The notes under the pieces: model-generated
What the model saw: the letters and a program-made list of their open reading frames with translations, nothing else
Told to the model about the DNA's origin: nothing
Database searches by the model: none
Assembly: GCA_950097015.1 (NCBI GenBank)
Contig: CATNEN010000038.1
Coordinates: forward strand, 33,666,001-33,730,000
From: Macrostomum hystrix
Lineage: Eukaryota; Animalia; Platyhelminthes
Reading direction: 5' to 3'
Length of the DNA: 64,000 bases
Program-made: the position numbers and the translations under genes
Part shown: piece after piece, positions 26 to 47,400 of the stretch
Numbering within the stretch: the stretch's first letter is position 1
How the letters are laid out: the number at the start of each line of letters is the position of its first letter

Positions 26-1750
26 TTGACTGAGAAGAGTGATAAATTTGCTGATGCATGCAAGCCATATGTTGCGGCATTAGTTCGTCTGGGCGAGTAT
101 TTAAAGACGAAGTTCAATAAACTAATTACTGAATTGGAACTGACTGCCGAATTGGACTCTTTTAAAATAGCTAGCGCTTGCTATGGAAAGTCTCGTAACC
201 AAGACAAAAAGCGTGCAGAAATAGCTCGACGGCTCAAATTAGATCGATTCATACTTCATTCAGATGAACTCCAGGCAGTATTTAATGTGATACAAGAGTT
301 TAAAGCCAAAGCTGAGGACGATCTTGACTCTGAAGAGTGTGTAATATTTCTAGGCTTGAATTTTACCATTTCTCCACAAGGCGCAAATCGTCCTGATGTA
401 GTTTCGAAAGCAAAAGTTAGCGAATTTCTGCAGTGGAAGAATGACATTAACATGGATCCTGCCGCATTCTTTGAAGTTCACGAGCACAAGACAGCAGAAG
501 ATGGTCCTGTTTTTATCTATGCTGCTGACATAAAGGATCTTCTACTTTCGTATGGAGAACATAGGCTTGAGTCTGGTGCGAAGCCGAATGAAAATTTTTT
601 TCTGTTTAAGGCAAGGAATCACTCGTTTGCAACCTTCCTGCGAGAAAAGAGACGGAAATTCCCGTCACTTCTTGCACTAAGCCGAATATCTCCGAACATA
701 GTTCGGCATGTCTTCGAAACTAAAAGCCGAGAGGTGAATGACAATGACACGCAACATTTAGTCAACCGTGCTTTGAATCATTCACATGCTACTGCTACAA
801 AGTCGTACATGGCAAGTACCCAAACACATGCCCGAGCAGCTAGTAAAGCTCTTCAGAACACTATCAGTCATTTTCTCAAGCGAGATGCTGCCAGCTCAAG
901 CGAAACTACTGACCAAGATCTGCAGAGCACCAGCAGTCAAGTTCTCCAACGAGGTTCAGCCAGCTCAAAGCGAGATACTGCCGGCTCAAAGCGAGATGCT
1001 GCCAGCTCAAAGCGAGATGCTGCCAGCTCAAAGCGAGATGCTGCCAGCTCAAAGCGAGATGCTGCCAGCTCAAAGCGAGATGCTGCCAGCTCAAGCGAAG
1101 CTACTGACAAAGATCTGCAGAGCACCAGTAGTCAAGTTCTCCAACGAGGTTCATCCGGCTCAAAGCGAGATGCTGCCAGCTCAGGAAAAGCTAACAGAGC
1201 TAGCGCCCCAAAGCCGTCGAAATTGCCACGAAATTTCGGAATTGTTGATCTTGATGACGACTCTGATGCTCTTAGTGCCTTTACTGAAGCTAAAAAGCAT
1301 CCCAGCAAAGAAGACACGCATCCAAACACGAAATTTCATGTTGTCACTTTTAATAAGCCAATGGCGGAAAAAAGACGTGCTTCTGATGATAAAAAAGAAA
1401 GTAATACGAAGAGTCATATAAAAAAAAGCAGGCGACTGCAACACGAAAAGCTGTGCGAGTCGTACGACTGTGGCGACATTGTATGTGCCAAGTACTCTAA
1501 CTATCCGTTCTGGCCTGCAATGATCTGCAACGATCCACGAAGCAACAGTCACTTCCGGCAACAAGAGCTGCATGTGCAGTTCTTTGAAAGTCCACCTACT
1601 CGTATGTGGATCAAGCTTGGAAATGTTAAGCCATTTGATTCATCTGACAGGCCACAGCAGGCTGATTCAGAGCTACTCGCTGCATTCACAACCGCTTACG
1701 AAGCTACACTGTTCCTTCCCGATGAACGACTGAATCGCTATCTTGTTTAG
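26..1750 (+). CDS. Tyrosine recombinase (Crypton-like/phage-integrase fold) fused to a C-terminal PWWP domain; 5' part probably lies outside the window
   Basis: YR catalytic set in the expected order: R in GANRPDVV (codon 389-391), K in HEHKT (485-493), H-x-x-R variant PNIVRH (R 704-706), H in ALNHS (779-781), Y in ATKSY (806-808). PWWP: YDCGDIVCAKYSNYPFWPAMI...LHVQFFESPPTRMWIKLGNVKPF (~1463-1640) followed by a helical tail. The ORF call starts at TTG near the window edge. Confidence 0.8.
   Translation: MTEKSDKFADACKPYVAALVRLGEYLKTKFNKLITELELTAELDSFKIASACYGKSRNQDKKRAEIARRLKLDRFILHSDELQAVFNVIQEFKAKAEDDLDSEECVIFLGLNFTISPQGANRPDVVSKAKVSEFLQWKNDINMDPAAFFEVHEHKTAEDGPVFIYAADIKDLLLSYGEHRLESGAKPNENFFLFKARNHSFATFLREKRRKFPSLLALSRISPNIVRHVFETKSREVNDNDTQHLVNRALNHSHATATKSYMASTQTHARAASKALQNTISHFLKRDAASSSETTDQDLQSTSSQVLQRGSASSKRDTAGSKRDAASSKRDAASSKRDAASSKRDAASSKRDAASSSEATDKDLQSTSSQVLQRGSSGSKRDAASSGKANRASAPKPSKLPRNFGIVDLDDDSDALSAFTEAKKHPSKEDTHPNTKFHVVTFNKPMAEKRRASDDKKESNTKSHIKKSRRLQHEKLCESYDCGDIVCAKYSNYPFWPAMICNDPRSNSHFRQQELHVQFFESPPTRMWIKLGNVKPFDSSDRPQQADSELLAAFTTAYEATLFLPDERLNRYLV
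878..1181 (+). repeat. In-frame 21-bp coding tandem repeat (SSKRDAA) plus a duplicated ~85-bp block in the YR-PWWP linker
   Basis: gctgccagctcaaagcgagat repeated about 6 times at 960-1092; the block SSSE(T/A)TD(Q/K)DLQSTSSQVLQRGS occurs twice. Confidence 0.9.
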
Positions 1751-1789: not shown

Positions 1790-4640
1790 ACCGGGCATTA
1801 AGATGCGAGTATTTACTTTTTGTCAATAATGAAGCGCTGTAATTCAGCCATATTTGGCGCATTTAATGTTTCGTTCAATGTGTTTTTTTTCAACCATTTT
1901 TATGCGCAACTCGCTTCCTATGCTACAGCTCAATCTTCATCAGTGCCGCATTAAACAGCGACTCAGAGTTGGGTTTTCACTCACTATATTACTTTGCAGT
2001 AGAATGAAAGAAAATTCGCTTCTAAATTGTCACATGAATCTAATTTTCCATAGCCCACATCTGAGGCGTCATTTTTATAAACATGCAGTAGTTTTCCATA
2101 GCCCACATCTGACGCGTCATTTTTCTAAACACACAGTAGTTTTCCATAGCCCACATCTGACGCGTCATTTTTCTGAACATCGTAAGTGAAACCTTGCTCT
2201 GATCGCGGGCATTGAGATACTTATTTTTTGTCAATAATGAAGCGCTGTAATTCAGCCATATTTGGCGCATTTAATTTTTCGTTCATTGTGCTATTTTTCA
2301 ACCATTTTTATGCGCAACTCGCTTCCTACGCTACAGCTCAATCTTCATCAGTGCCGCATTAAACAGCGACTCAGAGTTGGGTTTTCACTCACTATATTAC
2401 TTTCCAGTAGAATGAAAGAAAATTCGCTTCTAAATTGTCACATGAATCTAATTTTCCATAGCCCACATCTGAGGCGTCATTTTTATAAACACGCAGTAGT
2501 TTTCCATAGCCCACATCTGATGCGTCATTTTTCTAAACACACAGTAGTTTTCCATAGCCCACAGCTGACGCGTCATTTTTCTAAACACACAGTAGTTTTC
2601 CATAGCCCACAGCTGACGCGTCATTTTTATAAACACGCAGTAGTTTTCCATAGCCCACAGCTGACGCGTCATTTTTATAAACACGCAGTAGTTTTCCATA
2701 GCCCACATCTGACGCGTCATTTTTCTAAACATCGTAAGTGAAACCTTGCTCTGATCGCGGGCATTGAGATACTTATTTTTTGTCAATAATGAAGCGCTGT
2801 AATTCAGCCATATTTGGCGCATTTAATTTTTCGTTCATTGTGCTATTTTTCAACCATTTTTATGCGCAACTCGCTTCCTATGCTACAGCTCAATCTTCAT
2901 CAGTGCCGCATTAAACAGCGACTCAGAGTTGGGTTTTCACTCACTATATTACTTTGCAGTAGAATGAAAGAAAATTCGCTTCTAAATTGTCACATGAATC
3001 TAATTTTCCATAGCCCACATCTGACGCGTCATTTTTCTAAATATGCAGTAGTTTTCCATAGCCCACATCTGACGCGTCATTTTTCTGAACATCGTAAGTG
3101 AAACCTTGCTCTGATCGCGGGCATTGAGATACTTATTTTTTGTCAATAATGAAGCGCTGTAATTCAGCCATATTTGGCGCATTTAATTTTTCGTTCATTG
3201 TGCTATTTTTCAACCATTTTTATGCGCAACTCGCTTCCTATGCTACAGCTCAATCTTCATCAGTGCCGCATTAAACAGCGACTCAGAGTTGGGTTTTCAC
3301 TCACTATATTACTTTGCAGTAGAATGAAAGAAAATTCGCTTCTAAATTGTCACATGAATCTAATTTTCCATAGCCCACATCTGAGGCGTCATTTTTCTAA
3401 ACACACAGTAGTTTTCCATAGCCCACAGCTGACGCGTCATTTTTATAAACACGCAGTAGTTTTCCATAGCCCACAGCTGACGCGTCATTTTTATAAACAC
3501 GCAGTAGTTTTCCATAGCCCACATCTGACGCGTCATTTTTCTAAATATGCAGTAGTTTTCCATAGCCCACACATTACGCGTCATTTTTCTAAACACACAG
3601 TAGTTTTCCATAGCCCACATCTGACGCGTCATTTTTCTGAACACGCAGTAGTTTTCCATAGCCCACATCTGACGCGTCATTTTTCTAAACATCGTAAGTG
3701 AAACCTTGCTCTGATCGCGGGCATTGAGATACTTATTTTTTGTCAATAATGAAGCGCTGTAATTCAGCCATATTTGGCGCATTTAATGTTTCGTTCAATG
3801 TGTTTTTTTTCAACCATTTTTATGCGCAACTCGCTTCCTATGCTACAGCTCAATCTTCATCAGTGCCGCATTAAACAGCGACTCAGAGTTGGGTTTTCAC
3901 TCACTATATTACTTTCCAGTAGAATGAAAGAAAATTCGCTTCTAAATTGTCACATGAATCTAATTTTCCATAGCCCACATCTGAGGCGTCATTTTTATGA
4001 ACACGCAGTAGTTTTCCATAGCCCACATCTGACGCGTCATTTTTCTAAACACACAGTAGTTTTCCATAGCCCACAGCTGACGCGTCATTTTTCTGAACAT
4101 GCAGTAGTTTTCCATAGCCCACATCTGACGCGTCATTTTTATAAACACACAGTAGTTTTCAATGGCCCACATCTGAGGCGTCATTTTTATAAACATGCAG
4201 TAGTTTTCCATAGCCCACATCTGACGCGTCATTTTTCTAAACACACAGTAGTTTTCCATAGCCCACAGCTGACGCGTCATTTTTATAAACACGCAGTAGT
4301 TTTCCATAGCCCACATCTGACGCGTCATTTTTCTAAACACACAGTAGTTTTCCATAGCCCACAGCTGACAGCTGACAGCTGACACAGTAGTTTTCCATAG
4401 CCCACAGCTGACCCGTCATTTTTCTAAACATCGTAAGTGAAACCTTGCTCTGATCGCGGGCATTGAGATACTTATTTTTTGTCAATAATGAAGCGCTGTA
4501 ATTAAGCCATATTTGGCGCATTTAATTTTTCGTTCATTGTGCTATTTTTCAACCATTTTTATGCGCAACTCGCTTCCTATGCTACAGCTCAATCTTCATC
4601 AGTGCCGCATTAAACAGCGACTCAGAGTTGGGGTTTTCAC
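1790..4640. repeat. Composite (higher-order) tandem array: ~264-bp core plus a variable number of 48-bp subunits containing the palindrome TGACGCGTCA
   Basis: Equivalent positions at 1854, 2262, 2814, 3174, 3774 and 4513 give unit lengths of 408, 552, 360, 600 and 739, i.e. 264 + 3, 6, 2, 7 and ~10 x 48 bp. The 48-mer is gtagttttccatagcccacatctgacgcgtcatttttctaaacacaca. Confidence 0.95.
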
Positions 4641-5562
4641 TCTCTATATATTCTCTTAATTTCGCTTTCAAATAATCAAGCAAATAAAGTTTTCCATGGC
4701 CTACATCTTTTTTTAAAGTTTTTGTTGTTTAAAGTTGAAAGCATATCCAAATCAAGTTCGGCTTTGTGTTTTCAACGAATTTGTCGTCCTATACAACTTC
4801 TGGGTAGTAAACTACTAGCGTACAAGTAGTCGTTAACATGGAATGTGCTGCAAATTTATGAATTTGTTCTAATATTTCTTTTTTATTGACACTCGTAAAA
4901 TTAAAAAGTGCATGAAGAAGATACTGAATTTGCACATTTTTTACTATAGTACTGAATGAGGCAGTGAAGTATGAAGTTGATAAATCTGACGCGTCATTTT
5001 TAGGGGTCTCAGTTTGACATTCATGGAACTGACACAGTAAGTGAAATCTTCTATGGAAATCTAACGCGTCATTCCTTACGCAGTACTAAACTTGAAGTTT
5101 TAATTTAGTAGAAAAATGACGCATCGTTCTTTAGCACGTTAAAGTATTTAGTACTTCGCACTGAAAGTTGAAGTACTGTACATACTCGTAGTACAGTATT
5201 CTATTCTTCCGCACCCACATGTAGTAACTTTCATTTAGTTTCAGTATTAGTATTAGGTAAGTAAATTAGTATTAATATTACTATATTCATAGCATTATCG
5301 ACGTTATCGTACATTTCTCCAAATTGGACATCAGATTAAACTGCTCGGTAGTGCACTGCATATTTTGATTTCTAGCTTCTGTAAGTGATAAATTTTTAAA
5401 TACCGAATCGTGTACCGAAGTTACCCATCATCGTGTGTATATTTCCATTAATATTTATTGTTCAACAGACAGGACTCTGTAGTTCAGAATCTATATACAA
5501 CCAAGTTTCTGTGCATTGGTTTAAGAGTGAAATGCAAGTGCTGACAAACTCTGCTATAAAAT

Positions 5563-5579
5563 GGTTAGGGTTAGGGTTA
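5563..5579 (+). repeat. Short telomere-like (TTAGGG)n tract
   Basis: ggttagggttagggtta, about 130 bp before the inferred end of the YR element. Confidence 0.7.
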
Positions 5580-5706
5580 CGGTTTGCGGAATTTAAAATT
5601 TTGTGTCGCTACCATAAGACTACACTAGCGTCATTTTAGCGTCATTTTTCAGTACTTTCTAAAAATTATCGCTACGTCAGAATTCCACTTCTGCGTCATT
5701 CACCTA

Positions 5707-6125
5707 CCCATATTGGCCCACATATGCTGCCACATATACTGGCCCATATTGGCTCACATATGCTGGCCCATATTGGCCCACATATACTGGCCCATATTGG
5801 CCCACATACGCTGGTTCATATTGGCCCACATATACTGGCCCATATTGGCCCACATATGCTGGCCCATATTGGCCCACATATACTGGCCCATATTGGCCCA
5901 CATACGCTGGTTCATATTGGCCCACATATACTGGCCCATATTGGCCCACATATGCTGGCCCATATTGGCTCACATATACTGGCCCATATTGGCTCACATA
6001 TGCTGGCCCATATTGGCCCACATATACTGACCCATATTGGCCCATATTGGCCCACATATCCCAGCCTATATTGGCCTACATATACTGGCCCATATTGGCC
6101 CACATACGCTGGCCCATATTGGCTG
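5707..6125. repeat. Left subterminal 24-bp tandem repeats of the EnSpm element
   Basis: (ggcccatattggcccacatatact)n, the reverse complement of the 14618-15200 array. Confidence 0.95.
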
Positions 6126-6428
6126 GTCCATATATTATAGCGCATAGGGCCAAAGTAATTACTAATTACTATAAAAAACAAGTACCTATTTCTCTTTAAT
6201 ACGGCTTGCCTCTTAAATATTTACTTGCCATGTAACTAATTGTGAATGGATTGTGAATGAGCAATGCTTGTATTGCGCAAAACTTGCACAGCAACATGTG
6301 TAGGATACAAGTAGGAAACAAATTAATAGAAAGATTGTAACGCATGGATTGATTGGTTGACTGAAAGGTTCAGTCATGTAGGACACATTTGGTTTTCATA
6401 ACCACATACTCTCCGCTGCATCTATAGT

Positions 6429-7286
6429 CTAGGTTTTCTTCTTCGCTTCAGCAGCTGACAGATCCCGCAATGGCCGCTTACGACGAGGCAACGACTTCAT
6501 AGCTTCGATAGGCGCTTCAGGGGGTGTAGGGGGCATCTCGATTGCCCAAAACTGGGCATCGCCAGTTCGAATCTTCGGCTGGTTGCTGCGATGCCTGCCG
6601 GCCACCTGTAGCCTCTTTCTTCGACTCTCAGGCGACAGATCGGCAAACCAGGCCTCGCAGTCCGGACAACAGTGCGCCTGGAGCTCCAGTCTGTCCTCTT
6701 TGCGTCGGCAGACATGCACACAGGCCGGCCCGGAGCTTCTCTCTGGAAGCCGATTGTAATCCGCTCGAATTTCAGCCGCCGTCTTTCCTTCGAATATGCC
6801 GCCTAAGGCGTGCCGACGAACCCCGTCTCTGGGGCCTGCGGCCTCAGACCCATCATCGCCGCACTCGCCGGGGCCCTGGGTCTCAGACCCATCATCGTCG
6901 CCGCACTCGCCGGGGCCCTGGGTCTCAGACCCATCATCGTCGCCGCACTCGCCGGGGCCCTGGGTCTCAGACCCATCATCGTCGCCGCACTCGCCGGGGC
7001 CCTGGGTCTCAGACCCGCCAACGCCAGGGTCCTCTGTGGACGCAGCCATGGGACGCAGTGGTGTGTGCATAGTAACAGAAGGCCAAGTCAGCGACATGAC
7101 TTGCGTGGGCGGCAGCTCGTCACAGTTCACAATTGCGCGGCACTGACGCACATGCGCGCTTGTGTTGAATGTAGGAGACGTCGGTCGAGGGTCACGCAGC
7201 CGGCGAACCTCCGCACGCAAGACCCCGTTTTCTTCCTGGATTGCCGCACACACAGCGCACGTTGCCGCGTGGGTCCAGTGATCCAT
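6429..7286 (-). CDS. Compact CtIP/Sae2 (RBBP8/Ctp1/COM1-family) homologue carried inside the transposon, 285 aa
   Basis: The C-terminal VCRRKEDRLELQAHCCPDCEAWFADLSPESRRKRLQVAGRHRSNQPKIRTGDAQFWAIEMPPT is colinear with the SAE2 domain of CtIP as recalled ([42 protein letters not shown]...TPENFWEVGFPST): CxxC at 6657-6668, RHR at 6588-6596, FW at 6546-6551. N-terminal CAVC plus a coiled coil; basic C-terminal tail. Intact ORF. Confidence 0.85.
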   Translation of the reverse strand: MDHWTHAATCAVCAAIQEENGVLRAEVRRLRDPRPTSPTFNTSAHVRQCRAIVNCDELPPTQVMSLTWPSVTMHTPLRPMAASTEDPGVGGSETQGPGECGDDDGSETQGPGECGDDDGSETQGPGECGDDDGSETQGPGECGDDGSEAAGPRDGVRRHALGGIFEGKTAAEIRADYNRLPERSSGPACVHVCRRKEDRLELQAHCCPDCEAWFADLSPESRRKRLQVAGRHRSNQPKIRTGDAQFWAIEMPPTPPEAPIEAMKSLPRRKRPLRDLSAAEAKKKT

Positions 7287-8289
7287 CAGTAAGCTGTGAC
7301 TAGCTGTAAACGAAAGGGATCTTGAAGCGTTACTCTGACCACCTGATGAACATCCGGAAATATATATTAAAACGAAGCCCTATACGTACATACAATTTAC
7401 AAAAATTCTATCGCCATAAAAGCTGTATATTTATTACAGACTAATATATAATCCAGTACGGAACGACTCAAATATGACCCACAGTAGCATAAGAGTAGCC
7501 CTTTGGTGTTGGCAACCGGGATATGAACTGTAACAATTGCTTTGAATTATATTTATGAAATTATTTTGAAGGTATGAAACTTAAGGTAGAGGACAAAAAA
7601 TTATAAAAGACGCAAACTGCCAATACGTCAAGCTGCGGTGTCTGAAGAGTGTATACATACTTGCATTGACAGCACATACAGACAGCTGACTTGACAGCCG
7701 ATAACGTACCGTATTAAAGCGTATTAAAGGAGAGTGTATTAACTTTGTTCAACGGGAAGAGCAGGAACGTGGAACCACTTTCATTAACACGGCCAGCAAC
7801 GTGGCCACCAAATGCGGCATTTACCCTGTACGTTATTTGGGTAAGTATAGTACACGATATGTACTATCGTGTACTAAATATGTACTAAAATATGTACTAA
7901 AATATGTACTAAAAGAAGCATATGTAAAAAAATTCTACGGGATAACGGCGCAGTGTATACAAGGTGATACAAGTGCATACAAAAATGGCCGAAAAAGATC
8001 CTTTGTGTAGAAAGAGGACATGGCAATCGAGAATGGTGAATAAAGGAATTGCCAACGCCTGGAGCTGACAAAAATGCTGCTTCAGAGCAGCTAAATATCT
8101 TTATATCGCGAGTTTATATCGCCTCAATGACTCCTCTGCACCTATCTCAAATTATTTTCGAATACCCTTTCCCCCTGGGCTGAGCACTATGCTCCGTGTA
8201 CTCGTGCTTCTTTTTTCTATATAGTTTAGACTGCCTCAGCTTGCCCATTTGTATGCATCCACACTGCGAGCAGCGTGTCTCTGTATATA

Positions 8290-8482
8290 CAGACATGCAC
8301 ACAGGCCGGCCCGGAGCTTCTCTCTGGAAGCCGATTGTAATCCGCTCTAATTTCCACCACCGTCTTTCCTTCGAATATGCCGCCTAAGGCGTGCCGACGA
8401 ACCCCGTCTCTGGGGCCTGCGGCCTCAGACCCATCATCGCCGCACTCGCCGGGGCCCTGGGTCTCAGACCCATCATCGCCGC
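8290..8482 (-). repeat. Partial near-identical duplicate of the CtIP-like ORF (copy of ~6709-6899)
   Basis: cagacatgcacacaggccggcccggagcttctctctggaagccgattg...gtctcagacccatcatcg occurs at both positions. Confidence 0.9.
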
Positions 8483-8636
8483 ATCATCATCATATATATT
8501 CTCGGGATCGGGATCGGGATTGGGATATATATATATACTCGGGATCGAGTACCTTCAACCCTTAATCGATACTTTATCACTTTGAAACCTTCAAGACGAA
8601 CAAATCAGTTACAAAATCACTGCGGGGAACAATCGC

Positions 8637-10827
8637 TTAAGGATCGATATCGGCGGCATCGTTTTCGCCGGCTCCGGCGGCAACAGTGGCAGTAGCTGCG
8701 GCGCCAGCGTTGTCGCCGACAACGGAGGCACCAGCTGCCGCGGCAGTCGGGACATCGGCGGCGGTAACGGTCTGCAGTCCCCTCTGCGTACGGGCCGTGC
8801 GCCTGAAAACGCTGCCCAGTAGAGTATCCGGCAAGCGTTTGGTCTGTGTGAGAACGAAGAAAGTGAAGTAATGAAAAACTAATATTCTAACAGTTTATAT
8901 ACAATGTATTCCGATGCTGTAGACATGACGCTGCACTAAATCGCCCAAAATAGTAGTACAACTAGTGTAGAACAGCAATGCACATAATATTATGTACTAA
9001 AGAAAAGAAAAAGAAAAAGAAACAGTTAGTGTACAGCTTACGTCCAATTTTTTCTCTAGTAGATAAGCTCGGATGGCCCGCTTTTTCGTCTCGTCCAATC
9101 CCGGCCTGTTTGGCTTGTTTGATTTTTTGCTCTGGCGCCCTTCCCAGGAAGAGCCACTGAAGTCGGCAACAGTCAGGACGCCTCGGAAAAGTGTGCGGAG
9201 CATCGTGCCGCGCAGCTTTTGGCTGGTATCCGCCGCCTTGTATGCGCTGACGGCGGCCTCAATTTTGTTTAGCTTAGTGGTGGAAACCGTCACAGTAGGG
9301 ATGCTGCTTACTAAGGGCACAAGGACATCGGCATCCGCGATGGCATGAGCGGCTGTCCGCTGAGCAGCTGACGATCGCGATAGTCCCATTGAATCTATTG
9401 CCGCTGAGATGCCCAGCTGGCACACAAATGAAGATCTGCCGGCATCGTCGGTGCTGGAGTCGATGCTAGACGGCAAAACTGTAGCGTCGTGGGTATCTGA
9501 CGGAAGTACATCAGAACCAACACAGTTGCTATCTGCAGACACAGCAGGCCCTCCGGTTGAATGCGCCATTATACTGTTGGGTAGTGCTTCCCATGTGGCG
9601 TTTAACTGCCTCAATAGTTCGTGGCCATATTGCAACGCCTGCTTGCCTGAGTCGACCATAAGTCGGGCAACTCTGTCGGCCTGCAGTGTACTGCGGCCCA
9701 GGGTGCGTATAGCGTTCGTCAAACGCTCGTTGAAATCAACGGCAGTCTGTAGGCGAGTGTCGTAGTCAGCCAGTAAGTCGTGATTCTGGGTTATTACGGC
9801 GTCTCTATCTTTGAGATCTTGAATCAGAGTCTCGTTCAGATTTTTGAGAGCCTCAAGCTCATCATTTAGGCGCCTGTTTGTTTCAATTTCTGCGTCTGTT
9901 CGCTTCTGGGCATCCTGAACGCCGCTGCGGAGCTTGTGACACTCAACTTCCAGATTTCTGCAGCGTACGCAGTCACCGTCTGGCACATTAATTGTCGTCG
10001 TGCTAAGGACGCTTCGATTACTCGAATTAGGGCGGCCTGTTGACGACGAAGCGGCGGTGGAAGCCTGGTGCACGATGCGGCCCATGGCAGACGTTGCATC
10101 CTTTCGTATTCGAAAGGGGCCTGCGGTAATAAAAGCGCGATGCTTTTTGGCGCCAATGCTGCGTCCCGTGACGACATCAACCGCCGCGCCGATAGCTCGT
10201 TGGGCAGGTACGGCCGGCGAGACAATGTTTTTTGCGCTCACAACCTGAGAATGTAGATCAGTGGCATTCAAGTGGGATCGTGGAATCCGATCATGATATC
10301 GACATGTCGGTATACTGCACACGTACATCTGCATCTGCATGTAGGGATGCTAAAATTTCAGATTCGCTCACCTGCAGAGAATTTGAAGAGCAGTAAGTGA
10401 CTACCCAGAAGCTGTCACTCTGGATAGCAGGCGCAGCGATGGCAACTGGACTAGCGGAAGCATCAGCAGGCGGAATCTTCCGCTGCTGTAGCGGAAACCG
10501 TTTAGCTTTTCGGTTCTGTTGACCATCCTCGTCAGTTACGTCTGCAGCAGCTGATGCGCTCGGCGGCAGTGGGTCTTCCGTGCACCGGACCCGCTTGGAT
10601 TCAGCGCTGCACTCATCAATTGCAGCTGCAGACCTCTTCAGCTGGTCTGTGTGGTCTGCGTGGCCGAAGTTGCTGTTGGCGTCCAAGTCGACATTCTTGC
10701 GTACAGCGGGTTTCCTTGGCTTGGCCGTCTGAGCCGCTTTTTCGGAGGCCTTCTGCTGCTTAGCCGTGGCCTTGGCTGCCTGAGCCTGCGCTGCGGTACC
10801 ATCACCATCCGCTGCAATGGCAGACAT
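8637..10827 (-). CDS. Transposon accessory protein with coiled coil and C-terminal BEN domain; 3 exons (10827-10372, 10244-9042, 8843-8637), ~621 aa
   Basis: Phase-0 GT-AG introns 10371-10245 (cag|gtgag...tctcag|gtt) and 9041-8844 (gac|gtaagc...acacag|acc) join three ORF-track ORFs without a stop. BEN-like segment: MLRTLFRGVLTVADFSGSSWEGRQSKK...RPGLDETKKRAIRAYLLEK. CxxC plus coiled coil in the middle. Confidence 0.75.
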
Positions 10828-11282
10828 GTCGTAGCTGTTCGTAGGGTTTTCTCTGTTTCAGCTGTAAGGCTTTCTTCTCTGGTGACGCACGACACTGCTG
10901 GACAGGACAGCAGATAAGTACGAAACTGTATAGACATAATGAGGCACCATTTTTATTAGGTTTACATTTTTGACTTCGGTTTTGCAAAACAGAAAGACAA
11001 AGCTACTCTCGTGAATTATATAAATTATTTGTGCATTTAGCATAATAAATGTATTTATATATACTCCTTTATATTATACTAAAATATGGCATTAGTATAG
11101 CTGGGACTAAAGTGGCCTATATAGTGGACTACATGAAACTGAATTGGATATTTTAAATGTACATATAGCATCTTAGAAGTAGCCAAAACAACATACTTCA
11201 ATTACAAACTTAGAAATTAGAAATTTAGAAATTAGTAGAGAATTCTCTTCTATGCCAACCGTCCAATGTGTGCGACAAGTTG

Positions 11283-14133
11283 TCAGGACGCAAAGGAGAA
11301 CTGGACATGGGGCAGAAAAGCCACATGGGTGTCGCTCACGCAGCACGTCGCCAAAACGTCGTTGGCTTCCATGTCGAAGAAATACGGTGAAATGTCGCCA
11401 AAGGGATCTCCTTGGAGCCGACGTACGTGTGCAGCCGAGCAGCCGCCGTGCGCAGCATTCTGCGTCAGCCGAAACATCGGATGTTCCTCTGCATCCGGGG
11501 GAATTGTCGGCAGGCGCTTGAGACAGAATCGCCCGTCCAGAGTCGGCGGATGCTCTAATAGTCTGGATGCGGGCGAACTCGAACTCAGCGACAGGAGCCC
11601 TCTGTCTCCAAAAAGCGACGAAACATGACGCAGACCGCTGTTTCTGTAAGCTGGGCGTGTGAATCTCCAGCTCAATGCCAGATTTCAGGATAGCCTTGTT
11701 GTATTGCTGCACTGCGCCAGGTGCAACACGAATCGGCTTCTGCAACCGCGTACCATCTTGTAGACGGACTTCGCCTGTCGGCGGTCTATCACTGAAAGGA
11801 TTGTGCAAACCGAGCTGCGCCATGAACGTGCGCCGCGCCAGTTGCCGCCGTAACACACCAGCAATTTCCGTGTCAGTTCGGCGAGAGCCGTGAATAAGAC
11901 CACGCAATTTGGCGTGCGCAGACTCGAAGAGTCCAGCGGACATACGCCACATGGGACCAAACAACGTGACGTACGCCACAAAGTGGTAGCACACCTGATG
12001 GGCATTATACGTGAGAGCCATCTCGGAGTACAATACAGCCAGCTGTCGGTAAAATTGTCGGAGGACCCTTTGCGCCCTAATGACCTCCATAAGGGGAGCG
12101 CCGTCAAGGAGGAGCCAAAACATGGCGATCGACAGGAGCATAAAATGGCTGAAATATTGCTCCGGTAGGACGCATTCAAAGACCATTGGCCCGTAGACGA
12201 TGAGCATCGCTTAAAACTCGTGACCCCGAAACATGCCAAGCTCGTGCAATGTTCGCGGCAGTCGCTGATGTGACCAAGGCACGTAAATCCGGCTCATCGC
12301 GGCGTCAGCCTCTGCTCTTCGCGGCGCCATGTTGGGATTGTGTGCCTGGTACATGTCTGGCTTGTTGGTCGGATGAAAAAGTTGCTTCAGGATCCAGTTG
12401 ACTAATCCCTGATAGCACTGGTGCAGAAGACAGGGCGAGCAGCTGTGGGTGTAGTCGAAGCCATCCAAACGGTCAAGCAGCGAAATCGACATGACTCCAA
12501 GCAGACTGTCTCGCCCTGGAGGAATATTCAGCGCCAGTAATCGCGTGTCTCGACGGCTCCGTGCGTTCGGATTAAGGCAGCCAACGTGTCTCGCGGTCTC
12601 TGCACCTAATGTGTCGTCAAAAGGATAGCGAGCGGACCGCCTAGCCTGCACCGTTTGGACATAACATTTGTCGCAGCCATGAACAGCGTTGTGTCGTTTA
12701 AGGCCCATCACTTCTGCTCGCTGCGGCGCATCCATGACGAATAAAAGCGGATGTAAGCGTAGCACACCTGCGTCTTGGCCCAGTGGTCCTCCACCTTTTG
12801 AAAACGTAACACCGTCGGATCGAAGACGGTTCAGTTCGGTCACAAGCCATGGCAAAAAGACTGCTGCCTTAACCTTCGTCCTCGAAGCCCATAAGCCGCA
12901 GGTGACAACATAGCGCGACTTCATCGGTTCGTTAACTTCGTTAACACTGAGATAGACAGGGCACATTTCTACAAGTGAGTCGGCGAACATTGGAAAGCCA
13001 TCGATGTTGCAGGTCCAGCTGACGTCTTGGCATTCACGCAGAGGAATGCACCGCTTAAATTGGCGATACTCATCGCAGTTGGACATAGAAACGACTTGCG
13101 TATCGTCAGACGGCCGATCAATCGGAAACGTTATGTGCTGTAGCAGCCCACAGTGCTCAATCAGTTGGCGAATCTGCAACTGCATATTCAGCCGGTAAAA
13201 TTTAGAAACTTTTGACTTCACGAGCTGTACACCGCATTTCTCACAGGCCAGTTCACTTGTGACGCGAAGGGCTGAAGCTTCTGCACTGCACGTGTTGCAA
13301 AAGTACATGGGTGGTAGAATGGCGCCGTCGGCATATTGTTCAACCGTTTTGCGAAGCTGGTGGAATGAGGGCAGCACGCTGTCATTGGGCAGAACGGAAT
13401 GGAACAGTGTCAGAAGCTCGCGCGTCCCCCTCCGAGTCAACGACTGCCGTTCGCAGAACAGGTACACATAGGCAGCAAATTCGTCAAACGTTATCGGACT
13501 GCCATTGTACACGGGAGTGTCATTTCTTACGGGCGGTGCACCTGTCGCATTGGCAGTTGCGATAGCAATGATGTTATGGACTGCTTCCATATCAGGCGCG
13601 TCGTCATCGATGTCAGCATCTTCGAACTCTTGGGCGGCAAGTTCAGCCTCAGGGATTTGTGGCTCCTCGGCATCGTTCACGGAGTCATTTTCCGATATGA
13701 CGCTGCTGTCGTCTGCTGCAATCGCGTTGTCATCGACAACGTCAGCTGATAGATCAGCAAGCCCATCATGATGCAGATGTTCAGGTGCCGGTTGATGCAG
13801 CTGTTCAGGTGCCGGTTGTTGCAGGTGTTCAGGTGCCGGTTGTTGCAGGTGTTCAGGTGCCGGTTGTTGCAGCTGTTCAGGTGCCGGTTGTTGCAGCTGT
13901 TCCGGTGCCGGTTGATGCAGCTGTTCAGGTGCCGGTTGATGCAGCTGTTCAAGTGCCGCTTGTTGCACTTCCGCAGTTAATGCTATAGGCTGCATTTCCA
14001 GCTGTACTGCATGCTCTGCATTTGCATGCGCATTTCCGCCTCTGCGACCGGTAATGCGGACCCAAATTTGACGATATTGGCGACCTGTTTTGCTCAGCTG
14101 CTTGTTCAGTGCCTCGAGCCGTTCGCGCGACAT
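11283..14133 (-). pseudogene. CMC/EnSpm (Transposase_21-like) transposase with one in-frame stop (12211-12213) and a probable late frameshift (~11520)
   Basis: Motifs: CNTC...CEKC, WTCNIDGFPMF, MDAPQRAEVMGLKRHNAVHGCDKC, CLLHQCYQG, GHEF*AMLIVYGP, YNAHQVCYH...FGPMWRMSAGLFES. ORFs 14133-12211 and 12207-11173 share one frame across a single TAA. N-terminal 24-bp QPAPEQLQ repeat. Confidence 0.9.
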
Positions 14134-14617
14134 AGTCGGGAGCCGGATAGAGCTGCAATGTACATAATGTGCACAATGTACTTCTGGCAGGTACTAAGTA
14201 GTAAAAATGTGTATATTTTTGTGTTCATGGCGCTATTTCTACCCAACAAGGTGATATCGGACCATGTAAATATGTATAAACGTGTAAACAGTTTGACGGG
14301 TCATCATACAGATATACGTGTTCTGTGAATGGGCAGCACATACAGGGACAATATGAGTTAGCTGACCAGTTCGCTATATGCTGCCTACCTTTCTAGTGTT
14401 TTACCAGGTTTAAAGAAAATAATTATAAGAACAATAAACACGGCAAAATGAATGGACAGGTTATATTTCATTGTGATATTAAACAAAGTTACATCATTTG
14501 CGCTGTGCAACTTGGACTTTAAAGTCATAAAAAACGTATTCGAATGCTAGTGAAAAAACAATCCATTTATCTAGCCATTGACAAGCATACGCATTGGCTA
14601 TTTAAATCCTTTTGCAT

Positions 14618-15200
14618 GAGCCAATATGGGCCAGTATATGTGGGCCAATATGGGCCAGCATATGTGAGCCAATATGGGCCAGTATATGTGGGCCAATATG
14701 GGCCAGCATATGTGAGCCAATATGGGCCAGTATATGTGGGCCAATATGGGCCAGCGTATGTGGGCCAATATGGGCCAGTATATGTGGGCCAATATGGGCC
14801 AGTATATGTGGGCCAATATGGGCCAGTATATGTGGGCCAATATGGGCCAGCGCATGTGGGCCAATATGGGCCAGCATATGTGAGCCAATATGGGCCAGTA
14901 TATGTGGGCCAATATGGGCCAGTATATGTGGCAGTATATGTGGGCCAATATGGGCCAGTATATGTGGGCCAATATGGGCCAGTATATGTGGCAGTATATG
15001 TGGGCCAATATGGGCCAGTATATGGGCCAGTATATGTGGGCCAATATGGGCCAGTATATGTGGCAGTATATGTGGGCCAATATGGGCCAGTATATGTGGC
15101 AGTATATGTGGGCCAATATGGGCCAGTATATGTGAGCCAATCTGGGTCAGCATATGTGGGCCAATATGGGCCAGCGCATGTGGGCCAATATGGGCCAGCA
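14618..15200. repeat. Right subterminal 24-bp tandem repeats of the EnSpm element
   Basis: (ccaatatgggccagtatatgtggg)n, inverted relative to 5707-6125. Confidence 0.95.
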
Positions 15201-15593
15201 TTCTTGGGTCACAATAGTGGGCCGAAAGTGGGCTGAATTGGACATTCGGCTCGTTATATGGGCCAATTATTAATGGGCTCTTAATGGGCCTATGTGGGCC
15301 ACTTGTTGGCCCATCTATATGTGGGCCGAAACTGGGCAAAAAGCCCGCAAATTGGGCTAAAAGGCACTGGCCCACTGTTGGCCCACTGAAAAGCCCATAC
15401 TTGCATGAAAAAAGCCCTTTGGTTTGGCAACCGGGTTATCTACGGAATTTTCCAGTGTTTTATAAATTAAATTTTCCGCTTTTTAGAAAAAAAATTTTCA
15501 CTGCTTTGCATTACAATTTTCAATTCGACATTTTGTCATTGACCTCAATTGACCTTCCCCTAATAATTTCTCACCCTTCCAATTGACTCCCAG

Positions 15594-16169
15594 CTCTGGC
15601 GCAGTCAAAGCGGCGACTCGTCCGCCCGTCTAATCGACACGCTTAGCCAGGCCAGTCCGGCGGCCACATTCTCCATAATCTCGGATTCCATCGCTAAGGG
15701 AGTGTTCTGGAATGGCGCGACGCCGGTGGCCGCTGCCGCCGCTCCGATGCCACCACCGCCAGCCATCGTCCTGAGCGACCCCGCCAAGCCTAAGCCAGAT
15801 CAGTCCGCACCGGCTATTGTTGCCCCCGCCGCTGGGTCTGCTGCTACTAGTAGCAATGCCAGCAACAGAATAGCAAGATCGTCTTCTACAGCTTCGGCTA
15901 CGGCCAGTAAGAATCCGTTTGAATCCGCCATCGGGCAGCCGCAGCATCAGCAGAAGCAGCAGCAGCAGCCGAACCTTCGACACGCCGCATCTGCTGCCAT
16001 CGGCATCGGGCCGGGCATTCCTCGTGTAGCGTCCAGTTCGTCTGGAATGCCGGCCTCTCTACAGGCTTCAGGCGCAGCCGCCGGCCTTCACCAGTTGTCT
16101 TCGTCTGTTGGCGCCGGTGCCAATCAACCGGCCTATCCAGATCGTCTGAATCCGTTCGGCATGTCTTAG
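15594..16169 (+). CDS. Terminal coding exon of an unidentified host gene; low-complexity tail with two NPF motifs
   Basis: Acceptor ccaattgactcccag| at 15593; open frame LWRSQSGDSSARLIDTLSQASPAATFSIISDSIAKGVFWNG...SKNPFES...RLNPFGMS*; GC-rich, coding-like composition. Confidence 0.6.
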   Translation, partial: LWRSQSGDSSARLIDTLSQASPAATFSIISDSIAKGVFWNGATPVAAAAAPMPPPPAIVLSDPAKPKPDQSAPAIVAPAAGSAATSSNASNRIARSSSTASATASKNPFESAIGQPQHQQKQQQQPNLRHAASAAIGIGPGIPRVASSSSGMPASLQASGAAAGLHQLSSSVGAGANQPAYPDRLNPFGMS

Positions 16170-19487: not shown

Positions 19488-19579
19488 TAGTTGGCACACT
19501 TAATTAGGTTAACAAACCTTTATAGGTTGACAAACTTAATTCATTTTACGAATCCGTACTTCCATAGCTCATCGCCCAG

Positions 19580-20689
19580 ATGATGTCGCAACCACGCCGA
19601 TCAAAAAGTCAGCCTCTGCCAGCTGAGAAGCAACTAAACGCCGAGTTTCAGTTAGCAGCCAGCAGTAGTTTCAGCGATGACCCTGACGGTCGGGTTGCTG
19701 CGGCGGCGCTCGCGGGTAGAAAACGTGGCTGGCAACCGCCGTCCCTGCAGCGGAGCCTTGATTCCATATCTAACGATCTGCATCGCCTACTATCGCGTCA
19801 TAGTCGACTGCGTCCAATCATGGACCGGTTGAACTGTGCTGATTCCGGCTCCCTGAACTGCTGGCTGCGTAATCGTCTCGCTAGTGTCTGGCCGACTGAG
19901 TCGGATTCCGGCGCTGAAGGACCAACCGCCGCCAAGATTCGCCGAACTGACATTCAAATAGGAGGGCCTGGCCCAGTTAATGATGAATTTGTTCCCGTCA
20001 ACACAGGCTGCGATGATGATAGCAGTCAGGCTGTTCAGGAGGATGACAATTGTGACTTCGACCCGGCTTTCGCAGCTGCTTCAGTGAGGCCTAGAAGAAT
20101 ACGTTACGATTTTAACGCTTCGTTGCTAGAATTCGAGGACAGTTTAAGCCAGCCGATCGAATCTGGCACCAAAGATAATTATAATGAAGGCAGAAGCATT
20201 CTCAGCTGCTTTAGTGACGAAGAGGATGAACAAAATGACGATGCAGATTGCCCTTCGGAGTCAATTAAAGCTGAGCGACCGCCAGTGCCCACCTTGACTG
20301 GGAGTGGAGTCAGTAGTGACCGGAGGATTCTAGCCAATATTGTCTTTAGTCATCGCGTGGCATCTTATTATAAACCAAATCTGCCAGCTATTGTTGAATG
20401 CGACGAAGAACAACTAGCGGCTTCGGGTCCGTTACCGTCAGCGGCGGACGCTGCCAAAATAGAACAGCCGGAGGAAGCCGCTGAAGACGACTCGGAGAGT
20501 CGACGAAGTACACCGTCGCCAAGGACGCTTCGCCGAGAGAGCGACTGGTCCAGCATGCTGCCGCCTCTGAGTCCGGAGTCTGAGATGCGCCAATTGAAGG
20601 CTGAGTTCTTCTTACTATTAGCCAATAGTGAGGCCTATGAAAGGCTGTTAGAAATCAACAGTCATTGGCGACTGCGCTGGGAGCCTTAA
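19580..20689 (+). CDS. Uncharacterised intronless, largely disordered protein (369 aa)
   Basis: Non-repetitive 1.1-kb ORF with coding-like GC, followed by AATAAA at ~20740 and ~20966. No domain recognised. Confidence 0.65.
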   Translation: MMSQPRRSKSQPLPAEKQLNAEFQLAASSSFSDDPDGRVAAAALAGRKRGWQPPSLQRSLDSISNDLHRLLSRHSRLRPIMDRLNCADSGSLNCWLRNRLASVWPTESDSGAEGPTAAKIRRTDIQIGGPGPVNDEFVPVNTGCDDDSSQAVQEDDNCDFDPAFAAASVRPRRIRYDFNASLLEFEDSLSQPIESGTKDNYNEGRSILSCFSDEEDEQNDDADCPSESIKAERPPVPTLTGSGVSSDRRILANIVFSHRVASYYKPNLPAIVECDEEQLAASGPLPSAADAAKIEQPEEAAEDDSESRRSTPSPRTLRRESDWSSMLPPLSPESEMRQLKAEFFLLLANSEAYERLLEINSHWRLRWEP

Positions 20690-43372: not shown

Positions 43373-44400
43373 TTGACTTACTTGACTTAGCTGCAGGGGG
43401 CATCCTTCGGATGCAGCGGGAAGGCGTTTCCGCCCATTCCGCTAGCCTCTGGCGACCACGGGCAACTAAAGCTGCGGTGTCGCGCAGGGGGATCCGGTGA
43501 TGCCGGCGTCCGCAGCGCGATCCTCCTCCAGGAGGTGGAGAGTTGCTCGCCCGGTGGCCCTTAGGTAACGGATGAGCTGGCAGATGTTCTCATGCCTGAA
43601 AACGTCGGGAAGATCCGGATTTGGGCCGAGATAGGTGAGCCTGTCCTGAGTGAAGGCGGGGCAGTCGCAAATAAAATGCTCTGCATCCTCAATATAGGAG
43701 AGGCAGAAGGGGCATTCCTCACTGCGGGTTTTGCCTTGCAGGAAGCGGTGCCTGGCGAAACAGCCGTGGCCAGGGAGGGCCATGGTTACTGCCCTGATGT
43801 CCCTGCGGTTAAGTCCAAGCAAGGCTTTGCGAAGGGCAGTGGAGGGACAAGGGACAGCAGCGCGAGACTGCCGACAATCGGCGGTATTGATCCATCTGTC
43901 CTTGTGCTTTGAGGCCACCCACTGGTTAATCCGAGTGTTGACGACGGGGGTAGGGGTGGAGACCGCAGGCACGGGACCAAAAAGCGAACCCGTCGAACCG
44001 GCCTTGGCGAGGCTGTCGGCCAATTCGTTACCAGGGTGGCCAGAGTGCCCTGGAATCCACCTTAGGGACACCTTGTTGTGGGTCCCTAAGCGGTTGAGTT
44101 GCGCGAGGACTGTGCGCGAGCAGGTGTGCGTGCGTCCAAGGGCATGGATCGCCGCCTGGCTGTCCGAGTGGAGGAAGATTTCTGCTCCGTGGACATTTTG
44201 GTTGATCAGCTCCAGGGCGCAGGAGCTGATGGCGAGAACTTCGTTCTGTAAAACGGTAGAGTTTATGCCAGTGTGCCGGGAGAAGGTCGCCACAGTTTTC
44301 CCTCCGGACATAATGCAAGGTGCAAAGTCACCAGGCAAAAGTCGCTAGCGCCTTCGTCCAGGAGCCATTCCAAACTTAGAATGGAAAATGGAGCCTCCGG
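43373..44400 (-). mobile_element. 3' part of a LOA-like LINE: RNase H, CCHC zinc knuckle and short repeat tail
   Basis: [57 protein letters not shown]; tail (taagtcaag)2 on the minus strand at 43373-43390. Confidence 0.9.
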
Positions 44401-47400
44401 TCCTCCACCCATACAACCAGGAGCCGGAGATGCCCAATTTGCACCACTATTCATTGGATCCAACGTATGAGGAGCTGATGGAGCTGAGGAGCAAATTAGC
44501 AACGCAGATTGAGTTGAAAAAGAGGAAGAAGCAGCAGCTAAAGGTGAATCGCGTACGGAAATGCACACTCAGTAGAAAGCTTGTAAATCGAGCAAAGAAA
44601 TATGCTGCAACTCTGAAGTGCAAGAGAAGAGCTCTGTCAGTTAGTGTTAAGCTCCAAATCGTTAGCAACCGACTAGCTGCTCTACATGAGACATCCTATG
44701 AATCGCGAATGGGGATAGCTAAATGCCAGCAACTGTTGACTGAGAAAGGCAAGAAACTGCTTGAAACGTCCCTAAAAGACCGTTCGGGAGCATATAATGA
44801 AGCTATTCGCCAATTCGCCAGCCAGGTTTACTATTGTTCACCAAAGGCATACTCCCATCTGCGCCGTTTGATCTTCCATCTGCCAGCTGCCTCTACTATT
44901 CGCGACTGGAACCGCTTTGAATGCAGACCCGGCATTACTCGATTTTCGATCGACAAAGTGGCTGAACTGTCCGCCGATCATCGTGACTGAGTGCTGCTCA
45001 TCGATGCGATGCACATCCGAAGTGGGGTGTGCTGGAGCGCAAGCTTAAAGCGAATGATCGGATTTGCAGATGTTGGCGATGGTTGCGAAGATGGCAATGA
45101 GTTAAAGTTGGCGAAAGAGGCAGTGGTGATTCTGGCGGTGGGAATGTGCAGCTCCTGGAAGATTCCCGTGGCATACATTTTACCTGCTGGCGTTACTCCA
45201 TGGCATCAGTCACAGCTAATCGCTGACGTTATCAAGGAATTCAATCAATCTGGTGCAACTGTTCGAGCTGTAGCAAGTGACTGTGCCTCCGTGAACTTAT
45301 CTACGTTTAAACTGCTCGGAGCGAAAATCCCCGAGCAGCCTAAGTTCTTCCTTCAATGTCAAACCGATGCAGTGCATGTTTTCCTTGACAACTGCCATCT
45401 AATAATGCAATGTTCAGCAACAGAAATTAAAAAAATGTGAGCACTTGCAACTAACCAACTTTTCGCACAAATAGCTAGGTCAAGTGCAAAGCAGTCTATC
45501 AGAACGCCTTGGCATTTGACAATTTTAATTTTTTAGACACTTTATGATGAATATGTCGCATTGAGTGTTATTGTCGCTTGATTTGGCTAATAGCTATTTT
45601 CATTTTTGACCAAAACATATAAACTGAGTTAAAAACAAAGCAAATTCGCTAAGTTTCTTACTGTAAAACAATTAGTATATGCACATTCAAAGGTCCCATA
45701 TGAAAGTATATTGTTCCACTCCAAATTCCCTGCACCAGGTCGACTTGTGCGCACGGCTGGAAGGGTGCTATCTGGAATTCACCTGCGAGTTTGCAATGCA
45801 CTTTTGAGTTCCTTGACCGCACGTGCATCTACGAGCTACATTGATGGACTAAAAACTGCCGATTCTCTGCCTGTCAATGCAGTCTGCTCGAAAAATGTGG
45901 GCGGTTGGTTACTGCTCAAACACAACAGCGCTGCGTGCCCTGACTGCTGACTTATTTCTACTGAGCCATTTCAAGTTTCTTTTGACGTACAAGGTCTGCC
46001 AAGATCCACTGGAGCATTTCTTCGGTGAGATCCGCCAGCGCGGAGGATTCAATAACAATCCTGACGTCGAACAGTCGAACGGTAAGTATTGCTAATGCTG
46101 ACAGCAGACTTGATTTTATAGCTAGGCATTTATTTTTGGGGTTGATGTAGTTGGGTACGGGGGGTCTGCTAGTGCCCACTGATGGGTACGAAAGCAAAAA
46201 ATACGGCTCAGGTGCTACCTCTACATTTCAGATTTTTACTATTTTATGAAGGCAAGACTTTTTAACGACGGAACCAGTAGTATAGATTAGTAGTTAAAGA
46301 ACTTAAAACGAGTTAAAAGCTTTTTTAAGTTGTTGTGAGCGAAGCGAGCTGGAAGCTTTTAAGCAGCTGCAAGCAAGCAAGCAAGAAAATTTTGAGCAGC
46401 TGCGAGCGAAGCGAGTTGAAAGCTCTTGGATTTTTGTTTTATAATTTCCTAAAATTTAAGTTGTTTGAAAGCAAAGAAAAAACATTCAAAACTATGAAAA
46501 TATGTCAGAAAATGTTATTCTCAGATTTTTCTCGAATAAAAAGTTTCTGAGCTTTGGGAATATATCCCCTTATCCCCCACTTTAGCTACGCCACTGAGAT
46601 TGCATATACTGAATTACTTAGCTGTATCCATGGCTGTTTTATGTTTTCAGTGCCGCGTACCGGGCTCTAGTGCGGCATCGAACTGCAACCCTTGGCTGCC
46701 GCATGCTTCTGCCCCAGGTTATGCTACCAGCGGAAGGGCTGCCGACTTCTGCGTCTGCCAATTGCGAGCCCGAGATGCCCGAGGCTCCCTGTCCGATTCC
46801 ATCTATTGCGACATTGTCTGTAATCGGTCACAAAATTGCTGGCTACATTGGCCGGCAAATGGTGACGAAGCTGCAGTGCATGTCGTGCAAGGAAGCTCTG
46901 GTTGCTGAGACGCAAACCATGCGGCTCGCCCAAATCAAGGATCGTGGTGGTCTGTTCGCACCCTCAGCTGACCTTTGCAAGTGTGTGCAGACCTGCGAGC
47001 AGCAACGCAGGAGCATTTCGCTGGCGACATTCAGCAGCGTGACAATTGACAAGTTGATCAATGCTTCTGTGAGTGCCGCAGTTTTTAAAGGTGTATTCAC
47101 AAGCTTGGCCTGCATTGAGGCAGCTGATGAGAACCACAGGTACCATCTGATTCGCATGATTGTCCAGAAGTACGTTTTTATTCGCTTGTCTCACGCGGCT
47201 CTCAGTCTCAATATTGCTACGAAACGGTCTGTGCGCCATTCTCTAACCAAGAAAATTATTTTTCTTGGCCAGTAGCAGTCCCTTCTGTCTTTTGCATAAG
47301 GCTCTATAAGGCATAAGGCTCTATCGGGTAGTTTTTTGCTACATTTTTTGCTTCCCCAGACATGTAATTTCACTTTATTCTGTGCGTCGAACACTGGTTC

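Follow-up and report, generated by a model that had tools for sequence, protein, structure and literature searches.

A PWWP domain joined to a tyrosine recombinase of an unnamed lineage in the flatworm Macrostomum hystrix

Introduction

In the genome of the flatworm Macrostomum hystrix, a single open reading frame carries a tyrosine recombinase (YR) followed by a PWWP domain. The domain fusion is real, and it sits on a YR lineage that is unnamed and missed by Pfam. Our preferred reading, to which we give slightly less than an even chance, is an ageing copy of a Crypton-like YR DNA transposon, whose captured host PWWP domain of the NSD/MSH6 type would dock the recombinase on H3K36-methylated nucleosomes. 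A YR-PWWP fusion is apparently unreported: we found none in the literature, including any Crypton with a PWWP domain; the table of 823 fusions in 10.1101/2021.11.30.470311 may contain PWWP cases. The gene lies at the 5' edge of a stretch of 64,000 nucleotides (GenBank assembly GCA_950097015.1, contig CATNEN010000038.1, positions 33,666,001 to 33,730,000, forward strand), which is called the window in the following; all coordinates are counted from its first letter.

The capture of chromatin readers is recurrent in transposons and mostly concerns Chromo and PHD domains, and the available text of the same source describes fusions with Bromo readers of active marks as rare and validated ones as lacking (10.1101/2021.11.30.470311). 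The Chromo-bearing gypsy integrases such as MAGGY and the other Chromo and PHD fusions resemble our case in that a reader is fused in cis to an integrating enzyme. However, according to this source they are mostly found on DDE integrases and transposases, whereas here a PWWP domain (H3K36me, active chromatin) is attached to a tyrosine recombinase. SET domains are likewise known as transposon cargo, as far as described in PMC12730594.

The fused reading frame

The + strand frame at 2-1750 (582 aa plus stop) is not interrupted by stops and carries both YR and PWWP, in line with the preliminary description of this DNA, which had proposed one open frame for both domains. The same description had placed the start of the frame at position 26; instead, the frame is open at its 5' end, continues past this point and is cut by the edge of the window. 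Since the first in-frame ATG (nt 452) is located 3' of the codon for the catalytic R130, the gene starts upstream of the window. Relatives have 150-580 extra residues N-terminal to the visible frame, including zinc fingers, and the contigs of the sequencing runs X1-X3 and X9 reach approximately 1.1 kb 5' of the window start.

Along the + strand, the visible frame comprises the C-terminal part of a helical core-binding domain (2-247, aa 1-82), assigned from modelled helices and structural alignments, the YR catalytic domain (248-874), a basic low-complexity linker (878-1459, with 40 K/R and 28 D/E) and a PWWP domain of the NSD-PWWP1/MSH6 type (1472-1747), assigned by Pfam and by alignment to solved PWWPs. 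The linker includes 6.7 copies of a 21-bp tandem repeat (959-1098), and basic repeat tails similar to it are present in relatives.

The linker bears on whether both domains are translated together. Its 93 non-repetitive codons (1181-1459) were stop-free in 11 out of 5000 base shuffles (P about 0.002), and the other forward frames across the linker contain 18 stops (+1) and one stop (+3). The preliminary description had also considered that transcripts might splice the PWWP part to another gene. This alternative gained no support, because positions 1-1800 contain no GT-RAG donor and one acceptor, a weak one, was found before the PWWP. Hence, the PWWP as a separately spliced exon was rejected. 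Given the open linker and the absent or weak splice sites, a translated fusion is more likely than two domains that are neighbours by chance or sit on separate exons. RNA runs containing the stretch were not listed; run X10, which is RNA by guess only, holds one identical piece of 246 bases that is not taken as expression.

The stop-free join also argues against an accidental chimera, in which a PWWP-coding fragment would have ended up downstream of the YR in the correct frame in this one copy, without any mobile element ever having made use of it. We regard such an accident as unlikely, and the PWWP itself points in the same direction, being intronless, complete through its last helix and terminated by the stop of the frame.

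Fold and catalytic residues of the recombinase

The YR part was modelled with AlphaFold2 from a 12-row alignment (pLDDT 80, pTM 0.62), while folding from the single sequence reached a pLDDT of only 33. The model, a check that the preliminary description had suggested, takes a YR fold. In a Foldseek search with this model, the ten best rows were all XerA or lambda Int chains (best XerA, E 7e-4), and the search of a viral structure library returned integrases. By VIA-align, topoisomerase IB had the highest Z (11.2; rmsd 3.3 over 156 aligned residues). However, this match is confined to the catalytic domain (residues 85-263) and the Foldseek ranks favour XerA/lambda Int, so that an identity as topoisomerase IB was dropped. 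XerA was aligned with Z 9.8 and XerH with Z 9.5 (rmsd 7.3, 224 aligned residues), the latter across both YR domains, which are likewise covered by the structural alignments with XerA, Cre and the integron integrase. The alignments with XerH, Cre and the integron integrase begin at residue 1, the one with XerA at residue 23. Judged by the model, the N-terminal half is a tyrosine recombinase with the core-binding plus catalytic fold. Pfam gave zero matches to the YR region, and sequence searches of the PDB with the YR, both single and profile, gave none.

The catalytic residues were assigned from motif order and conservation, without side-chain superposition. R130 (389-391) is conserved in 12 of 12 alignment rows, and K163 (488-490), R235 (704-706), H260 (779-781) and Y269 (806-808) are conserved in all eight rows long enough to include them. 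Together they would provide the Arg, Lys, Arg, His/Trp and nucleophilic Tyr of tyrosine recombinases. The His of the HxxR motif is replaced by Asn232 (695-697) here, by Arg in one relative and by Thr in six, with His in none of the eight rows; the catalytic set described earlier as full is thus reduced to five of its six residues. However, Asn232 need not mean a dead enzyme, because the Cre variant H289A retains recombination according to the available text of PMC4381057.

Relatives and classification

A HMMER scan with aa 1-292 against 1.84 billion representatives resulted in 12 matches at E up to 0.001. Among the ten matches examined, the top one is a Macrostomum lignano protein (PAA84835.1/PAA66829.1, 41%), the eighth is again from M. 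lignano (PAA91811.1/PAA87763.1, 26%), and the other eight are unnamed ENA/Logan proteins. The presence in M. lignano of two divergent YR lineages other than that of the query counts as transposon-like behaviour. In full-length relatives, zinc fingers precede the YR and the C-terminal tail either consists of basic repeats or is short and helical; the layout of the family is zinc fingers, YR, basic tail. With hhalign, a wider unnamed animal YR group (P0012, P0027) was reached at 99.4% probability, and in the ESM Atlas unnamed eukaryotic clusters scored 0.97 and Phage_integrase 0.93. The M. lignano, P0012 and P0027 YRs share with the query the YR signature, the catalytic set without the HxxR His, and low-complexity or helical tails, but they have no PWWP; in the case of M. 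lignano, the gene models are marked as partial and may miss a downstream part. The animal proteins of the P0027/P0012 cluster end in short helical tails at the C-terminus and are not matched by Pfam; this YR group is apparently unnamed or named in Repbase alone.

Other searches added little. A word-indexed protein search with the YR part gave 0 of 3277 candidates, and an alignment against longer proteins, a weak search that missed P0002, gave one match among 7997 scored. None of four viral contigs had a related YR, and none was found in phage records. Two metagenome loci (L001 and L002, from 184 pattern matches) were rejected, as both 59-residue matches were driven by the seed peptide.

Regarding known YR elements, the closest comparison is with the animal CryptonA/I elements, which have no C-terminal domain in the available text of Kojima and Jurka (2011, PMC3212892). 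As far as described there, they share with the query the YR as apparent transposase, the animal host, the catalytic R/R/H/Y and the existence of decayed copies. In contrast, the query carries a C-terminal PWWP, belongs to a family with N-terminal zinc fingers and does not match DUF3504 (PF12012), for which none of the 12 alignment members gave a match at E up to 1. It is therefore not a CryptonA in the sense of a DUF3504-type YR without a C-terminal domain, nor is there a Pfam match to the DUF3435-type captain YR of Starships. CryptonV is defined by YR clade membership and microsatellite targeting, as far as given in PMC5753468 and PMC8869645. In the window, which begins inside the gene, the catalytic core of the YR is free of other long overlapping frames, and no RT/RNase H frame, the hallmark of DIRS, Ngaro and VIPER, overlaps the YR or lies downstream of it. 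Of the earlier proposal of a Crypton-like element, we keep the likely transposon origin, outside CryptonA/DUF3504.

The PWWP domain and its origin

Pfam PF00855 matches aa 491-567 with E 1.2e-13 (51.8 bits versus a cut-off of 25.6), and the PWWP motifs named earlier are found at nt 1502-1525, 1574-1585 and 1601-1615. The closest solved PWWPs are PWWP1 of NSD2/NSD3 and that of MSH6, with E about 1e-11 (comparison structures PDB 5vc8, 6xcg, 6g24, 2gfu and 6oqm); in total, 22 sequences matched with an E of 0.001 or lower. HDGF-type PWWPs match worse, at E 5e-5. The Y-W-F cage, the QFF-acidic loop, the R-x-W motif and the terminal helix are shared with the NSD2, NSD3 and MSH6 domains; the conserved Trp ahead of their cage motif is, however, Cys496 in the query. 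The aromatic cage, on which the preliminary description had built, is intact in the alignment with NSD2: Y501 (1502), W504 (1511) and F527 (1580) align to Y233, W236 and F266, which bind H3K36me2/3 nucleosomes according to the available text of 10.1101/2021.03.05.433782. That the cage is kept despite the far divergence from the solved NSD/MSH6 domains is a further argument against an accidental joining. A basic DNA-binding surface is not clearly evident in the PWWP core, with 6 K/R versus 5 D/E; the adjacent linker has 12 versus 6, and the alignment stopped short of NSD2 K304/K309/K312. Cys496 and the composition of this core count as weak points.

None of 26 relatives contains a PWWP, as judged by phmmer for the whole set (best 4.6 bits) and by Pfam for 16 of them. 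Several of the 26 are fragments, with at least four ending before the catalytic Tyr, eleven fall into a single distant cluster, and M. lignano is represented by partial models. Because of this distribution, the reader looks like a lineage-specific capture and the fusion stands without an independent replicate; the same count would also be expected if the PWWP had fallen behind the YR by accident. A weak word-indexed search with the PWWP alone (0 of 19 candidates) did not find a donor. Based on the sequence similarity, the PWWP probably derives from an NSD or MSH6 gene of the host and was added C-terminal to the basic tail of the family.

Alleles and copies in the sequencing runs

Eight of the ten listed runs were compared, all as contigs; X6 and X7 were left out. 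Run X9 covers 1-324 only. A run of eight A in the linker (A8; 1420-1427, + strand) is covered by four runs. The only intact run is X1, from which the window itself may derive; it has A8 at a depth of 122. The runs X2, X3 and X4 from two studies (depths 4.6, 8.9 and 11.9) have nine A instead (A9), a +1 frameshift that leads to a stop at codon 500, by which the PWWP is lost and the YR is spared. The fused frame thus varies among the samples, and three of the four covering runs have the additional A. Moreover, A9 is linked to 1165T (four of five covering runs), a base that departs from the consensus of the 21-bp repeat. Because A9 travels with this off-consensus base, the fused frame is likely ancestral. 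A frameshift this common would suit a PWWP that arrived by accident and never found a use, but its derived appearance speaks against this explanation.

Both A8 and A9 are real alleles and leave the YR intact, which would also fit a switchable reader, with the A run as a slippage site giving YR-only and YR-PWWP products. We hold such a switch to be extremely unlikely, since homopolymer runs mutate often and there is no sign of selection for the A run. In addition, slippage on A9 would require a +1 shift, whereas the usual shift is -1.

A second copy, approximately 88% identical, was found in X1, X2 and X3. It carries R130C and several frameshifts, and the 34 changes listed comprise 10 synonymous and 24 non-synonymous ones, with 8.2 +/- 2.5 synonymous changes expected if neutral. 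This copy is dead and has decayed neutrally; it diverges from the alignment at 976 and is uninformative on the PWWP. The contig depth ratios of the dead copy to the locus studied here are 74:126 in X1, 10:6 in X2 and 46:14 in X3, depths that are not read as copy numbers. Furthermore, the segment 1527-1812 (+ strand) also exists in a separate place, where it starts at 1527 behind foreign sequence in the runs X1 and X5 from two studies. Since the depth in X1 steps from 122 to 212 at 1527 without a corresponding loose end further 5', this third piece fits a 5'-truncated duplicate. A 3' fragment of the PWWP without a YR in front of it is what an accidental chimera could have started from, and counts in favour of that alternative.

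One complete YR-PWWP locus was seen, and element ends, a target site or an empty site did not appear in the contigs of the covering runs. The dead and the truncated copies are signs of a duplicating and decaying element, but fall short of proof of transposition. The preliminary description had named a single-copy locus without sign of mobility as speaking against it; this applies in part, as only one full YR-PWWP locus was seen. Taken together, the intronless visible frame, the family-wide catalytic residues, the neutrally decayed copy and the segregating damaging allele make a transposon origin likely.

The opposite fate, a domesticated host gene acting as a single-locus chromatin factor in the manner of the DUF3504 genes, would fit the flat depth over the ORF in X1 and the near-identical sequence in eight runs, which are compatible with one locus. 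Crypton domestication is, moreover, well known, as far as described in PMC3212892. We nevertheless consider domestication very unlikely here. The catalytic residues lost in the domesticated DUF3504 genes are intact in the query, which in this respect and by its common reader-removing frameshift differs from ZMYM, KCTD1 and QRICH1, the visible frame has no introns, and a close orthologue was not found among the 1.84 billion representatives.

Surroundings of the gene

The gene is followed by a compound tandem array (1792-4650, + strand), which is possibly the subterminal region of the element. It is built of six longer units, and a 48-bp subunit containing the palindrome TGACGCGTCA is matched 27 times in it. 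For the core GCGTCATTTT, the window has 30 occurrences (0.22 expected), and because all of them fall within 2066-5648, the element may extend to a position near 5.7 kb. A hairpin end sought at 4940-5200 was unconvincing (z -1.9, equalled by 7 of 200 shuffles). Two telomere-type TTAGGG units lie at 5566-5580, in unique DNA that separates the array from the neighbouring element.

The neighbouring element of approximately 9.5 kb (about 5707-15223) is bounded by inverted 24-bp subterminal arrays at 5707-6133 and 14617-15233. Its transposase-like region (11173-14193, - strand) is spread over shifted frames without a Pfam match, and from its motifs we take the transposase to be EnSpm/Plavaka-like. 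The element also contains a coiled-coil/BEN-like frame (8997-10349, - strand; BEN E 0.01) and a frame at 6429-7379 (- strand) with a CtIP/Sae2 C-terminal motif within 6432-6767. Pfam SAE2 scored 20.7 bits (cut-off 19.8, E 9e-4) with the C-terminal part of the latter frame alone and 16.9 bits with the whole frame, of which a partial duplicate lies at 8290-8482. By sequence, it is possibly a captured Mre11 nuclease activator carried as transposon cargo.

This neighbourhood raises the question of whether the YR-PWWP gene is itself cargo of a larger element, such as a giant EnSpm/Plavaka-type transposon or a virus-like insert, and acts on the element's own DNA or chromatin, e.g. in circle resolution or anti-silencing, instead of insertion-site choice. 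YR genes of Amoebidium sit in Plavaka-flanked clusters, as far as described in PMC11244446. Here the EnSpm/Plavaka-like element is found 4 kb downstream of the YR gene, and GCGTCATTTT of the 3' array recurs to 5648, just short of the left end of this neighbour. However, this neighbour has inverted arrays of its own at both ends and the YR gene lies outside of them, and we find a role as cargo quite unlikely.

The preliminary description had further placed the gene possibly inside an intron of a host gene. A candidate terminal exon on the strand of the YR gene (15594-16169, + strand; 191 codons, no Pfam match) has a good acceptor with 72% pyrimidine and two NPF motifs, presumably endocytic adaptor-like. 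An upstream partner exon was not found among the + strand frames of at least 70 codons in 4651-15600. An intronic position of the YR-PWWP gene is plausible, but a single site of this kind does not amount to evidence of targeting.

Several other features were recorded in the window. A motif ending in GGCAACCGGG occurs in the same orientation at 7497-7521 and 15411-15434, and these are likely the ends of another element family nested in the window. A frame of 373 codons (19568-20689, + strand) is another likely host gene without a Pfam match. A broken P-element-like transposase with a TNP-like RNase H (E 1e-29) is located at 44349-47272 (+ strand), a THAP-domain frame (E 1.5e-16) at 63426-63998 (+ strand), and fragments at 41.8-51.5 kb are, judging from their motifs, presumably LINE-like.

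Possible mechanism and significance

If the locus is an ageing YR transposon copy with a captured reader, the recombinase would, like other YRs, excise the element as a circle and recombine this circle into a new site. The basic linker together with the PWWP, once gained from the host gene, could bind nucleosomal DNA plus H3K36me2/3, and such a tethering would bias the landing toward transcribed gene bodies and introns. Alternatively, it may hold the element within chromatin regions that are spared from silencing. After insertion the copy would have decayed, such that most sampled individuals carry the frameshift that removes the reader. Excision, H3K36me2/3 binding and the target bias are inferred, the targeting by a histone mark from PWWP homology. 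The more far-reaching claim, that a flatworm YR transposon family uses a working H3K36me2/3 reader to place its copies inside transcribed genes and thus encodes its own LEDGF-like tether, appears doubtful to us.

The PWWP domain of LEDGF/p75 has a role in tethering HIV-1 integrase to transcribed chromatin. If our reading holds, both systems share a PWWP-type tether that brings an integrating enzyme to transcribed chromatin. However, LEDGF is a host cofactor (PMC13582839) that acts in trans on a DDE integrase, whereas the reader found here is encoded by the element itself and is of the NSD/MSH6 type, not the HDGF type.

If the fusion is a one-off, the locus is an ordinary decaying transposon copy. 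If the reader works, the fusion would be a natural single-chain integrating enzyme that reads a histone mark of active genes, and the natural reader-less allele would serve as a built-in control beside the comparison of a cage mutant with the wild type. Chromatin-guided target choice would then extend from the chromodomains of retrotransposons and the host cofactors of retroviruses to the poorly understood YR transposons of eukaryotes.
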